Positions 6,596 through 9,999 of a stretch of DNA of 64,000 bases are shown piece by piece. The notes beneath the pieces were generated by a model, which ran no database searches, was not told where the DNA came from, and saw only the letters and a list, made by a program, of their open reading frames with translations. The DNA lies in assembly GCA_003135555.1 (NCBI GenBank), contig PLCF01000014.1:12320-76319 (forward strand), read 5' to 3'. How positions within the stretch are numbered: position 1 is the stretch's first letter; each line of letters starts with the position of its first letter. Source of the DNA: Vulcanimicrobiota bacterium. GTDB taxonomy: Bacteria; Vulcanimicrobiota; Vulcanimicrobiia; Vulcanimicrobiales; Vulcanimicrobiaceae. The position numbers and the translations under genes were made by a program.

Positions 6596-7787
6596 GGGCG
6601 ACGCGCTCGAAGGTCGTGCGCGGATCCCCGTCGCGGTAGCCCTGCACGCGTAGCACCGACGTGCCGCAGAGCATCTCCCACAAGGGTTCGACGACGAGCT
6701 GACGCCGCCACGAGGTGAGGTTGACGACGTCGCCGAGCGCCTCGGGCGTCTGCGGAGCCTCGCGCGCGATGCGCTCGAGCGCCGCCCGCGGCAGCAACAG
6801 CGTCGTCGGAAGTTCGTTCTCGGCGCCCAGCGCGCTGACCAAGACGGCCATCGTCGAGACGAGGGCTTCGCGTTGCAGCCCGAGCGGCTTGGGTGCCCGC
6901 GGCGGAAGGTCTTCCTCGGGCAGCGCCTCGCCGCGCCGCACCGCCTCGATGATGCGCTCGCCGATGTTGCGGCGGGTCCCGGCGTCGATGCGGCGCAGCT
7001 GCGAGAGCTCGTCGACGGTTTTCGGCCGCAACGCTACCAGTCCGACCATCACGTCGTCGGGCAGCACGTACTTGAGCGGGATGTTGCGCTCCCGCGCGTA
7101 GCGGTCGCGCAGTTGCGCGAGCTCGTTGAGGATGCCCAGCTCGCGGCGGTTCATGCGCGCGTTGCCGGAGATGCGCAGGTACAGCCGCTTGGGATCGGCG
7201 CGATAGGTGTGCAGCTCGACGAGCGACGGCATCTCCTCCTGGGCCCACGACTCGCGACCGCGCGCACGCAACCGTTCGCACAAGCGATCTTCGAGGTCGA
7301 AGAGATAGCGCACGTCGTCGACGAGGTAGTCGACCTGTTTGGGCGTGAACGGGCGCGTGCTCCAATCGCTCACGGTCTGCGACTTGCGCAGGGTGACCCC
7401 GCACAGGTCACGGACCAGGTCCAAGAGCGAGATCGACAGACCGTATCCGGCGAATGCCGCCGCGACTTGGGTATCGAACACCGCGCGCGGCAACGTCTCG
7501 AACGCGTCGGCGAAGATGCGCAAGTCCGAGGACAGCGCGTGCCCGACGATGCGCGCGCCGGCAAGTGCGGCGACGAGCGGTCGCAGGTCGCGCAGCGCCA
7601 GCGGGTCGACCAGCGCCACGCCGTCCTCGAACAGCAGCTGGATCACCATGAGGTGCGGCGTGTACGACTTCTCGGTGTGGAACTCGGTGTCGAGCCCGAC
7701 GCGCTCGGCGCGGGCGATCCGCTCGCTCAGCGCGGCGAGCGCCTCGGCCGTGTCGACCAAGGTGACGGTGTGGTCCGGATGGTTCAC
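6573..7787 (-). CDS. rnd: Ribonuclease D (DEDDy 3'-5' exonuclease with HRDC domain)
   Basis: GLDTEF, VFDTQVAA, SDWSTRP...QVDY..DDVRYL, followed by an HRDC-like region. Confidence 0.92.
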   Translation of the reverse strand: MNHPDHTVTLVDTAEALAALSERIARAERVGLDTEFHTEKSYTPHLMVIQLLFEDGVALVDPLALRDLRPLVAALAGARIVGHALSSDLRIFADAFETLPRAVFDTQVAAAFAGYGLSISLLDLVRDLCGVTLRKSQTVSDWSTRPFTPKQVDYLVDDVRYLFDLEDRLCERLRARGRESWAQEEMPSLVELHTYRADPKRLYLRISGNARMNRRELGILNELAQLRDRYARERNIPLKYVLPDDVMVGLVALRPKTVDELSQLRRIDAGTRRNIGERIIEAVRRGEALPEEDLPPRAPKPLGLQREALVSTMAVLVSALGAENELPTTLLLPRAALERIAREAPQTPEALGDVVNLTSWRRQLVVEPLWEMLCGTSVLRVQGYRDGDPRTTFERVALSETPAG

Positions 7788-8464
7788 TGGCGCACCGTCG
7801 TGGCGCCGCGAGCGGCGCTAGGAATCGGGTGCGGGTGCGGGCGGCGGCGTGGAATGTGAATGTGGTGTCTCTCCGCATAGGACTGCGCCGGTTCGAAGAC
7901 GTGCGCCTCGAGATAGTCCGACGCCACGGTTCCGAACACGGCCAGGACGGTACAGATCGGGATTGCGATCGCGCACATCGTATAGATCTGCCGAAAGATC
8001 GGCACGCGCAACGCCGCGGCCGTCTGGGTCGCGATCGTTCCGCCCAGCCCCGGGATGATGCGCACGACGATGAGGAACATCGGTGACCCGATTTGGAAGT
8101 GCCGCGCCCAGGTCGGCAAGCGCTCGACGTTTTTCTTCACGTCGAATGCGTCCGACGTGCGCAGCGCGATGACGTAGCCGATCACCGCGGCAAGGACCAG
8201 ACCGACGGCATTGACGACCGAACCCCATACCGGACCGAACAGCACGCCGTTCATGATCGCCAGCGCATCGGTCACCGAGAACGGCGCCGATGCCACGATC
8301 GCGAAGACCAGCACGGCCAACGGCATCGCGAACGGTCCTAGGTCAGCGAGCAGATGCTCGACCCAAGGGCGATGCGAAACGACGATCGCCGCCAACGCGA
8401 ACGACGCAAGCAGGATGCCGACGGCCTCCAGGCGTCGCAGCAGCTGGACAATGCGAGGGCTCAC
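7784..8464 (-). CDS. TVP38/TMEM64 (VTT/DedA) family membrane protein
   Basis: Hydrophobic helices, GVLFGPVWG, RIIPG; His/Pro-rich tail; start position uncertain. Confidence 0.75.
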   Translation of the reverse strand: MSPRIVQLLRRLEAVGILLASFALAAIVVSHRPWVEHLLADLGPFAMPLAVLVFAIVASAPFSVTDALAIMNGVLFGPVWGSVVNAVGLVLAAVIGYVIALRTSDAFDVKKNVERLPTWARHFQIGSPMFLIVVRIIPGLGGTIATQTAAALRVPIFRQIYTMCAIAIPICTVLAVFGTVASDYLEAHVFEPAQSYAERHHIHIPRRRPHPHPIPSAARGATTVRQ

Positions 8465-8513
8465 CGAGACGCTGTGTTTTGCCGGGTGTGGATAAAGCCC
8501 CCCAAAACCGGGG

Positions 8514-8542
8514 TTGACCCTGTCCTCGCCCGGGAGTACGAT
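8514..8542 (+). promoter_or_regulatory. sigma70-type promoter for the candidate ncRNA
   Basis: TTGACC (8514-8519), 17-nt spacer, TACGAT (8537-8542). Confidence 0.75.
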
Positions 8543-8548
8543 CAACCT

Positions 8549-8812
8549 ACCTCGAGGTACACACATTGACGTACGGGAGGGCGGCTTGACGTCGCAAGAT
8601 CCACCCGGGTCCACGGCACCGTCCGGCTGACTGCGCGCCGGCGGTGACGGAACGACAACCAGTTCTAAGCGCAAATCAAAATCCGAAGGCAGGAGGGCGG
8701 CATCAGCTCGATGACCGAGGATCCACCGAAGGAAGCGACGTCGTAGCGGCCGATTGACCGCGCGACAAGAAAATACAATCGAAGGGCCACGCCGATTCGG
8801 CGTGGCCCTTTC
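8549..8812 (+). ncRNA. Candidate structured non-coding RNA (6S-like rod; family not identified)
   Basis: Lies between the promoter and a terminator with no long ORF; 8580-8595 pairs with 8735-8751 and 8626-8639 pairs with 8696-8707. Confidence 0.55.
8781..8812. terminator. Intrinsic terminator hairpin, probably bidirectional
   Basis: GAAGGGCCACGCCG-ATT-CGGCGTGGCCCTTTC between convergent units. Confidence 0.75.
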
Positions 8813-8835
8813 GTCATTGGGGCAGCGGTGAATCG

Positions 8836-9507
8836 TTAGTGAAACGCGGCCAGCTTGACCGACTTCGCTCCCAGCGCTTGCGCGAGATCGTAGAACGCTT
8901 GGTTCGAGATCTGGTGATAGTTCGCGTCGAGCTTCGCGCCGAATTTTGCATCGATCGCGGCCATCGTCGATTCGTGGATCCCGTGCGTCACGAGATGATC
9001 GAGCATCGTGCCGGTCGCAAAGGCGCCGTTGTTGCCGGGGACGCCGAGTCCGACGAGCCGTGCGGCCAGCGTCTTACCGCTGATGTTCGAGGCGGGAAAC
9101 GTCACGCCGGCCGCCATCGCGGTCGCCGCGGATTGCGTGACGGCGAAGTTCTGCACGGTAATGAAATTGCCGACCGCCGCCTTGCCGTACTGCTTTGTCA
9201 GCTTGTTGACTTCGGCCGTGGTCAAGGCCGGGCCGACCAGCGCGGTCAGTGCGGTGGCGATCGAGAAGTTGGTCGGGCCGCCGCCGGCTTTTACGAGGGA
9301 GATCGTGGCCGCCAGGTCGGGCTTGCCGGTGTAGGCGTAGCCGTCGCCGCCGGGCGGCATGCCGTGCTCGGCGGTCATCGAGCTCATCGAGCCGTGGGTC
9401 ATCGACATCGGCGCCGCCGACGATATCGCCGACTGGGCGAAGGCGGGGGCAAGCGAGAGCGCGGCAAGCGCCGCGCCGGCCGCGACAGCTGTGAATCGGT
9501 TGATCAA
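8836..9507 (-). CDS. Secreted hypothetical protein with Met/His-rich N-terminal segment
   Basis: Signal peptide ending AFA; PMSMTHGSMSSMTAEHGM; GGAG RBS before the TTG start. Confidence 0.75.
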   Translation of the reverse strand: MINRFTAVAAGAALAALSLAPAFAQSAISSAAPMSMTHGSMSSMTAEHGMPPGGDGYAYTGKPDLAATISLVKAGGGPTNFSIATALTALVGPALTTAEVNKLTKQYGKAAVGNFITVQNFAVTQSAATAMAAGVTFPASNISGKTLAARLVGLGVPGNNGAFATGTMLDHLVTHGIHESTMAAIDAKFGAKLDANYHQISNQAFYDLAQALGAKSVKLAAFH

Positions 9508-9570
9508 GTGCTTGTTCTCCAGGAAGGGGTTCGTCCAGATGAACGGCCCCGCCCCAAGGACGGATTGGCC

Positions 9571-9999
9571 TTACTCGACGGCCGCGATCGAACGCCGGTC
9601 GGCGGGATCGTCGCTGGGCGTGCCGGCGAGGAACGCCGCGAGGATCTCGCGGCCGACCGCCGGGCTGGTGGCGCGCAGGCTCAGTGCGAGTACGTTAGCG
9701 TCGTTCCAGCGCCGTGCGCCGTCGGCGGTCGCGGCGTCGGCGCACAGCGCCGCGCGAACGCCGCGCACCTTGTTGGCCGCGATCGAAATCCCCGTGCCGG
9801 TCCAGCAGCACACGATGCCCAGGCCGGCACGTCCCTGTGCCACTTCTGCGCCGACCGCACGCCCGATCGACGCCCACTCTTCGGACCCGTCCGCGCCCAA
9901 GGCGCCGAACCGCACGACCTCGATGGCGCGGCGCTCCAGCTCGTCGAGCAACGCGTCGGTCAGCGGCCCCTGGTCGTCCGATCCGATCGCACAGCGCAT
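9571..9999 (-). CDS. rpiB: Ribose-5-phosphate isomerase B (RpiB/LacA/LacB family)
   Basis: CWTGTGISIAANKVRGVRAALC, ARRWNDANVLAL. Confidence 0.88.
   Translation of the reverse strand: MRCAIGSDDQGPLTDALLDELERRAIEVVRFGALGADGSEEWASIGRAVGAEVAQGRAGLGIVCCWTGTGISIAANKVRGVRAALCADAATADGARRWNDANVLALSLRATSPAVGREILAAFLAGTPSDDPADRRSIAAVE

Follow-up and report, generated by a model that had tools for sequence, protein, structure and literature searches.

A stand-alone, leader-like small RNA with two predicted, self-folded ribosome-binding sites in the uncultured bacterial family Baltobacteraceae

What does a promoter make when it points into a gap between two genes that both read the other way? The question is raised by positions 8465-8835 of a 64,000-nt stretch of contig PLCF01000014.1 (the window; assembly GCA_003135555.1), which comes from a member of the genus Ca. 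Elarobacter in the family Baltobacteraceae, phylum Eremiobacterota (also called Vulcanimicrobiota or WPS-2), and in which the gap is flanked by two minus-strand genes. The best explanation is an abundant, structured RNA of about 265 nt, transcribed independently from the plus strand between 8549 and about 8812. This small RNA is genuine, conserved and free-standing, it belongs to an uncultured bacterial family of soils and peat, and its conserved fold is not a rod, as a preliminary description of the locus had drawn it, but a chain of local hairpins with two predicted, self-folded ribosome-binding sites. We propose that each of these sites is a self-sequestered translation-initiation region, present here in duplicate, that would serve a very short open reading frame (ORF) with two consecutive proline codons.

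The promoter consists of a -35 box TTGACC (8514-8519) and a -10 box TACGAT (8537-8542) with a 17-nt spacer between them, and it is the sole plus-strand sigma-70-like site found by scanning 7500-9800, where 0.3 ± 0.6 would be expected. Both hexamers are matched in all 23 aligned sequences of the genus, that of the window included. The sequence ACCTCGAGG from 8549 is invariant in the same 23 and always lies 6 nt past the -10 box, and the conserved RNA therefore begins at the expected transcription start. The 5' end is predicted at about 8549, 7 nt after the -10 box, and opens with a 5'-terminal palindrome or short stem-loop, ACCUCGAGGU (8549-8558); one further species has ACCTTGAGG here, and at the same site other genera carry longer, true hairpins, as read by eye. 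The unit closes with an intrinsic terminator (8782-8812), a 13-bp G+C-rich hairpin (8782-8810) and a short U-tract. Six of the 13 pairs of this hairpin are changed on both sides among the relatives, with 99.3% of cells paired, and the terminator may also serve the convergent minus-strand gene that ends at 8836. The fold energy of the plus strand is -116.9 kcal/mol (z = -5.1 relative to shuffles; z = -1.8 for the minus strand). The near-consensus promoter, the strong closing hairpin and the lack of a plus-strand gene to serve had all been pointed out in the preliminary description, and all three stand; its remark that there is no long ORF also holds, except that two mini-ORFs, each led by a Shine-Dalgarno (SD) sequence, had been overlooked.

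Conservation follows the limits of this unit. In a BLASTN search of 8467-8835 against 40 relatives (24 other genomes of the genus, 5 of a sister family and 11 of the same class), 22 of the 24 congeneric genomes were matched at 73-86% identity, and the matches cover query positions 33-347, which is window 8499-8813, exactly from promoter to terminator. None of the five sister-family genomes was matched, and the 11 same-class genomes gave one 32-nt match, at chance level. Metatranscriptomes also hold the RNA: four runs from four studies contain contigs of relatives, 150-240 nt in total length and with depths of up to 381 and 243, that align only between 8568 and 8769 and in no case extend upstream of about 8554-8560. 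None of these contigs enters the promoter or the flanking genes, one of them ends in Illumina adapter directly after about 8772, and the stretches that they leave uncovered (promoter, terminator and flanks) were not taken as proof of absence. Whole contigs of about the RNA's size are the pattern that a discrete, abundant small RNA would give.

The fold was derived from a segment-wise alignment of 32 distinct sequences of the genus and pair counting. The local-hairpin model pairs 92.5% of cells (75.3% for the rod) and has 14 pairs in which both sides change, a result not reached by any of 500 shuffles. In module 1 (8574-8607; local fold -14.2 kcal/mol) the SD sequence GGGAGGG (8575-8581) pairs with UCCACCC (8600-8606) across an A·A mismatch and encloses an inner hairpin, CGGC/GUCG, whose loop starts with UUG (8586). 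The outer stem is 100% paired, yet invariant, and the evidence from covariation lies in the inner stem, where 75 distinct rows show GC 31 times, GU 26 and AU 14 at one pair and CG 39, UA 20 and AU 4 at the next. No shuffle of 500 scored as high, and controls with the pairing slid out of register drop to 29-45% paired; the 75-row alignment was fitted to a covariance model and therefore favours the structure. Module 2 (8692-8727), as seen by local folding and pair counts, repeats the design, with the SD sequence GGAGGG (8692-8697) paired to UCCACC (8722-8727) around an inner hairpin CGGCAUC/GAUGaCCG; its outer stem is likewise 100% paired and its inner stem changes from UA to CG in three sequences. 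The two modules share the GGAGGG:UCCACC pairing with its conserved mismatch (A·A, or A·G in some relatives), an inner hairpin after GGAGGG, and a 5-nt internal loop on the 3' side, CAAGA or GAGGA, before UCCACC.

Further hairpins lie between and beyond the modules. Hairpin H2 (8617-8646; CACCG-U-CCGGCUG...CGCGCCGG-CGGUG) is supported by alignments and local folding, and all five of its inner pairs change on both sides across genera. It is followed by a variable hairpin, H3 (8649-8666; pairing by eye, position from alignments), and by the conserved block AAGCGCAA (8667-8674), whose GCGC could, read by eye, pair with the GCGC of the H2 loop. Downstream of module 2, hairpin H4 (8740-8766; GUCGU-A-GCGGCC-GAUU-GACCGC-GCGAC) has five of its ten pairs changed on both sides. 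One member of the genus (L069:1471-1705) carries a natural deletion of H4, by which the second mini-ORF is cut to MTEDPPKE; H4 seems dispensable because this RNA keeps both modules and the terminator intact. RNAalifold, run on the raw MAFFT alignment, instead paired a 5' CCUC with GAGG of module 2, a pairing neither supported nor excluded, since all of its columns are invariant. A kink-turn, a T-loop and a tRNA-like minihelix were considered for the module by inspection and set aside, the defining GA/AG or T-loop positions being absent.

The preliminary description had folded the RNA by hand into a rod with a bubble and had read it as a divergent relative of 6S RNA or of actinobacterial Ms1, which would bind RNA polymerase. 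Its size, its own promoter, the z value of -5.1 and the rod-like minimum free energy (MFE) structure of the single sequence are what such a reading would have, and the hand-drawn rod is indeed identical with that MFE structure. It is not, however, conserved over the 23 genus sequences: mapped on their alignment, its helices pair in 48-91% of cells (75.3% overall), the two main ones (8580-8595/8735-8751 and 8626-8639/8696-8707) show no compensatory change, with 9 of 15 and 6 of 13 pairs, respectively, in which the only departures are unpaired cells. Rfam 15 gives no match in the window at gathering scores, nor at seven pattern-hit loci and six single-module loci; in 8400-8900 the 6S model RF00013 (cut-off 46.4 bits) finds no match even at E values up to 10, and the E-value mode of Rfam returns nothing but noise and a terminator-like hit to Pseudomonas P17, at 20.8 bits where the cut-off is 45. 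The genome also has a 6S candidate elsewhere. At G000:C54:7159-7343 (L001:1501-1685) a full-length match to RF00013 scores 17.7 bits and has a closing stem of about 19 bp in its MFE structure, and the locus is orthologous at 84-92% identity in all five congeneric genomes tested, which score up to 28.6 bits. RF00013 scores 42.5-52.6 bits in five of five genomes of the sister family and reaches 72-94 bits in all 11 genomes of the same class (a count that includes the unpublished genome G036); the gradient looks like a single diverging 6S lineage, and the candidate is likely the true, strongly diverged 6S RNA of the genus. With the rod helices unconserved, the model blank and a 6S candidate at another locus, we now find a 6S- or Ms1-like function for the RNA of the window hardly credible. 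Other housekeeping RNAs are likewise accounted for, above their cut-offs, by loci elsewhere in the genome (signal recognition particle RNA on C73, 72.1 bits; tmRNA on C33, 108.6 bits; RNase P RNA on C44, 203.8 bits), and ARAGORN sees neither tRNA nor tmRNA in six loci of the present RNA family, L002 included, in line with the earlier remark that signatures of tmRNA, RNase P and SRP were lacking here. What survives is the fallback of the preliminary description, a new lineage-specific noncoding RNA, which the promoter and terminator, the conservation, the covariation, the RNA-library contigs and the blank Rfam result all support.

If not a rod that holds RNA polymerase, what is the RNA built to do? 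The modules themselves offer a clue, as in each of them the SD sequence GGAGGG pairs with the codons GAU-CCA-CC of the mini-ORF that it would serve. Mini-ORF 1 (8586-8630, plus strand; TTG to TGA, MTSQDPPGSTAPSG) has 14 codons and a stop that falls within the H2 loop, and mini-ORF 2 (8711-8746, plus strand; ATG to TAG, MTEDPPKEATS) has 11 codons and a stop inside the 5' strand of H4. NUG follows GGAGGG by 4-5 bases in short modules and by up to 14 in long ones, in frame with (C/G)A(A/G) GAU CCA CCN; the spacer between SD and start pairs with codons 2-3, and the start (UUG, AUG or GUG) stands in the apical loop or just 3' of it. The extra bases of longer modules fall between SD and start and never between start and GAT. 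Among 38 distinct sequences of the module 1 type, NTG lies exactly 12 nt before GAT in 33 (TTG 25, ATG 4, CTG 3, GTG 1), and a canonical in-frame start is present in 31, compared with 0 of 38 in each of the other two frames. For module 2, all 24 distinct sequences counted have a canonical start in frame (10 at -12 and 14 at -9), and a single start occurs in the other 48 frames; four loci that the search pattern did not match stand outside this count (Asp codon GGU in two, AAU in one, and one truncated locus). In 42 distinct 24-mers no change is seen at positions 1 and 2 of the codons for D, P and P, and variation is three-periodic: the third positions give GAT 41 and GAC 1, CCA 37 and CCG 5, and CCC 16, CCT 8 and CCG 18, the codon after Pro-Pro is GGG in 25, GGT in 8 and GGC in 9, and the preceding Q/E codon varies only between A and G at position 3. 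The only conserved residues are (Q/E)-D-P-P-(G/K). The stop of mini-ORF 2, UAG or UAA, stands five codons past PP in other genera as well, and ORFs across the family end after 8-21 codons, with one exception at 42. The search pattern also matches, in many phyla, a coding stretch of a hydrolase gene (...PEGE...YRKIHL[FY]D...) that is unrelated to the RNA (among the matches listed: L132, L136, L149, L151, L165, L166, L181, L184, L190, L191, L194 and others). These form a useful negative control for the module pattern. Among the matches listed, at least 14 are 38-nt coding matches from other phyla, and all of these lack such a start.

From these signals in the sequence we favour, tentatively and somewhat short of an even bet, the reading that the RNA engages ribosomes and that its diprolyl mini-ORFs sense translation status. 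In this hypothetical mechanism ribosomes would open the modules and translate the ORFs of 8-14 codons, and their occupancy of, or pausing at, the Pro-Pro codons, the same codons that form the anti-SD strand, would remodel the fold of the RNA and hence its activity or stability. The quantity sensed might be the supply of elongation factor P (EF-P) or of prolyl-tRNA, or the capacity for initiation, and the logic would be akin to that of a leader peptide, uncoupled in this genus from any gene in cis. DPP and PPG belong to the diprolyl arrest motifs that EF-P rescues (PMC6544042). In Salmonella mutated in efp, pausing is most frequent at the motif PPG, and DPP ranks among the strongest peaks (bioRxiv 10.1101/2024.09.11.612453). 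CCA raises pausing, and CCC and CCU are avoided as the first codon of a proline pair (PMC8129111). The genome has an efp gene, and the first proline codon of the mini-ORFs is only ever CCA or CCG, which fits the codon choice in the literature. The position of single-module relatives just ahead of a translation-factor operon, rimP-nusA, also speaks for this reading.

Several observations weigh against such a sensor. A canonical start is lacking in 7 of the 38 module-1 sequences, which have CTG at the usual site (3) or one codon later (1), ATT at the site (1) or one codon later (1) or, in L099, no start codon of any kind, and in place of the Asp codon module 2 has GGU in two species and AAU in another. 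The peptide past DPPG/K is unconserved, and mini-ORF 1 varies in length between 8 and 15 codons. The Pro-Pro codons exactly complement the SD sequence, and "PP" could therefore be a by-product of SD sequestration; moreover, the variable third positions coincide with the mismatch, a wobble pair and the stem end of the SD helix. Selection clearly acts on the RNA, as the inner stem covaries at the cost of Ser, Pro and Ala changes. There is no evident output, because nothing lies downstream on the plus strand, and inspection by eye, with no formal search made, found no convincing antiterminator pairing, H4 included. Finally, the metatranscriptome contigs reveal neither the strand nor the true ends, and DNA can be present in an RNA library.

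The main rival, which we consider unlikely, is that the RNA is not translated and binds a protein, its modules being high-affinity, operator-mimic hairpins that titrate an RNA-binding protein as CsrB does CsrA. The bound protein would possibly be a dimer, given the two copies, and NUG and the periodicity would reflect sequence recognition rather than decoding. GGAGGG and GAUCCRCC are near-invariant across genera, more so than pairing requires. A conserved purine-purine mismatch together with an asymmetric 5-nt internal loop, as here, is what protein sites typically show. The module occurs twice, and the RNA is apparently abundant in RNA libraries; genes for CsrA and Hfq are present, and the RNA has four GGA motifs. 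The GGA motifs lie, however, in stems and not in loops, and protein binding leaves unexplained why the NUG varies at its first base only, why starts are confined to a single frame and why no insertion separates start and GAU. The module has no second copy in the genome, which leaves no mRNA operator to be mimicked. The csrA gene stands between flagellin-family genes, and csrA between flagellin genes is the context of a flagellin-specific FliW-type system. Directly upstream of csrA (L258; G000:C19:1-2200) is a 172-aa ORF without Pfam match, in what we take to be the place of a FliW-like partner, as in the Bacillus arrangement.

A third possibility, compatible with translation-status sensing and to us rather improbable, is that the RNA acts in trans by base pairing, possibly as a dual-function RNA in which the mini-ORFs are secondary, with AAGCGCAA, the H2 loop UGCGCG, GAAGGA or the SD- and anti-SD-like strands pairing to target mRNAs. 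It would be in keeping with a stand-alone unit that has an intrinsic terminator and conserved single-stranded blocks in a genome with Hfq. Its U-tail is short (UUUC), however, and the best-conserved parts of the RNA lie within helices.

Whether the RNA serves its neighbours is a matter of both its surroundings and its relatives. Upstream and divergent is the gene for a VTT-domain membrane protein (PF09335; 7784-8464, minus strand; ORF 7784-8674 with a likely GTG start at 8464), and downstream and convergent is a 223-aa ORF without Pfam match (8836-9507, minus strand). The VTT-domain gene is divergent and adjacent in all 36 genus loci examined and the 223-aa gene convergent and adjacent in 26 of the 36, at 46-82% amino-acid identity. 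The VTT start at 8464 is only 50 nt from the -35 box of the RNA, a distance at which the two promoters must either stand back to back or overlap; a simple scan called no minus-strand promoter in window 8470-8513, and a CCGGGG run just 5' of the -35 box is kept across the genus in that interval.

To follow the family more widely we used a covariance model, R1, of the 5' part of the RNA, which in the window's own genome finds one copy at 110.8 bits, the next match scoring 12.4 bits. In a class-wide draw, at E up to 0.1, R1 matched 81 of 115 genomes of the same family (the unpublished genome G152 among them), none of 3 from the sister family and, at E of 0.08-0.1, 2 of 32 from a third family; in a phylum-wide draw, at E up to 0.01, it matched 35 of 71 genomes of the family and none of 79 from 20 other families. 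As the draws are samples of mostly incomplete metagenome-assembled genomes (MAGs), these zeros mean "not found in those searched". Relatives of class A adjoin a VTT-domain gene and have two modules or one; the two-module form occurs in four further genera, at 53-65 bits in three and 41 bits in the fourth. Those of class B are RNAs of about 210-230 nt with a single module and lie between a proline-rich gene and rimP-nusA, and many single-module relatives stand directly upstream of this translation-factor operon. The class B terminator overlaps the -35 box (TTGCGG) of a second promoter, and a conserved hairpin and a U-run follow before rimP. The two classes may be paralogues because some genomes give two R1 matches. 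In the window's genome the rimP promoter and leader hairpin are present and the module RNA is absent there. This rimP-nusA leader, seen by comparison (L106, L109, L110 and L112-L115, at about 1690-1770 in each; own copy at L250:2050-2110, G000:C39:12709-12727, minus strand), consists of the promoter with -35 box TTGCGG, the hairpin GCGUGGGCnnGnCCCGCGC and a U-rich run, after which rimP begins, and its sequence suggests an attenuator for the rimP-nusA(-infB) operon. In a first pattern scan of GTDB genomes, chance or coding matches made up 5 of the 39 loci (Acidimicrobiaceae, Chloroflexi, Anaerolineales and one untyped MAG); the matches listed by a second scan mix family members with chance matches and support no claim on distribution. 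Among the matches listed, a module RNA typical of Eremiobacterota occurs on contigs labelled Rhodospirillales, Alphaproteobacteria, Babeliales, Acidiferrales and Limnocylindria (L135, L154, L198, L201, L040/L185), which may be mis-binned or mislabelled, as contigs or as bins.

These surroundings give what support there is to a role in cis, in which read-through of the terminator would run antisense to the 223-aa gene, or the divergent promoter region would control the VTT gene, with the RNA a by-product. The fixed VTT neighbour and the frequent convergent gene fit, as does the single-module relative of sister genera that precedes rimP-nusA with its terminator overlapping the second promoter. 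We nevertheless regard it as decidedly improbable, since the body of the RNA is better conserved than the downstream protein, 10 of the 36 loci keep the RNA with no 223-aa gene downstream, the RNA-library contigs end short of the terminator, and synteny within a genus is weak evidence.

Translation-status sensing, our preferred reading, can be extended to the relatives in a specific but doubtful form. We would then propose a free-standing translation sensor in which one or two self-sequestered initiation regions feed ribosomes to EF-P-dependent Asp-Pro-Pro-Gly/Lys stalls and so switch the fold and the trans activity of the RNA, and which derived from a leader-like RNA upstream of rimP-nusA-infB that was then duplicated and relocated. 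An ORF-bearing, leader-like small RNA of a family-specific kind would be new: Rfam 15 has no matching family, and our search of the literature found nothing on small RNAs of Eremiobacterota and no comparable RNA. Members of the phylum abound in peat, permafrost and soils, and hardly any are in culture. The anatomy is unusual in that the Pro-Pro codons of the served ORF are the anti-SD, the module is duplicated and relatives head a rimP-nusA operon. If ribosomes do engage the RNA, it would be a natural case of stalling-based sensing uncoupled from a downstream gene and a simple system in which to test EF-P-dependent regulation in vitro.

Set beside known systems, the RNA resembles 6S RNA (SsrS, RF00013) and Ms1 in size class, own promoter, apparent abundance and stable structure, but it has no conserved closing stem or central bubble and no model match, and it carries SD-led mini-ORFs. 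With the CsrB and RsmZ sponges it shares repeated SD-like GGA modules, abundance and the presence of csrA, but there are only two modules and four GGA motifs, all in predicted stems or internal loops and none exposed in a hairpin loop. The E. coli arrangement metY-rimP-nusA-infB begins with an initiator tRNA gene, metY; sister genera similarly have the gene of a small stable RNA, a terminator and a second promoter upstream of rimP-nusA, although ARAGORN sees no tRNA or tmRNA in these loci and the RNA of the window's genus is not at rimP. The module resembles in build SD-sequestering elements such as the ROSE and fourU thermometers and to the MS2 operator hairpin, which likewise have an imperfect SD:anti-SD helix, a conserved mismatch, a G-U closing pair and a start at or near the loop; here, in contrast, it would govern only a mini-ORF in an independent RNA and no protein gene.

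Other points of comparison are RNAs with short ORFs. Proline-codon leader peptides control attenuation in the Salmonella mgtCBR leader (mgtP) and mgtA leader (mgtL), and with such attenuators the RNA shares a short SD-led ORF with consecutive proline codons, a putatively alternative structure and a following intrinsic terminator; it has an SD sequence, a start in frame and, within a short ORF, conserved regulatory codons. The logic of the his leader (PMC8129111) is a further point of comparison for attenuation. The differences are that two ORFs stand here in tandem, that the proline codons are the anti-SD strand, that no antiterminator was found by eye, and that no regulated gene follows on the same strand, the next gene (8836-9507) being convergent; in other genera the single-module relatives are indeed followed by rimP-nusA, from which a second promoter separates them. 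SgrS/SgrT, RNAIII/hld and SR1/SR1P are dual-function small RNAs with small ORFs, and like them the present RNA is a stand-alone structured small RNA carrying a translatable small ORF, here a predicted one. Its peptides differ in having 8-14 residues of which only xDPPx is conserved, and for that reason it seems to be the act of translation, and not its product, that is selected.

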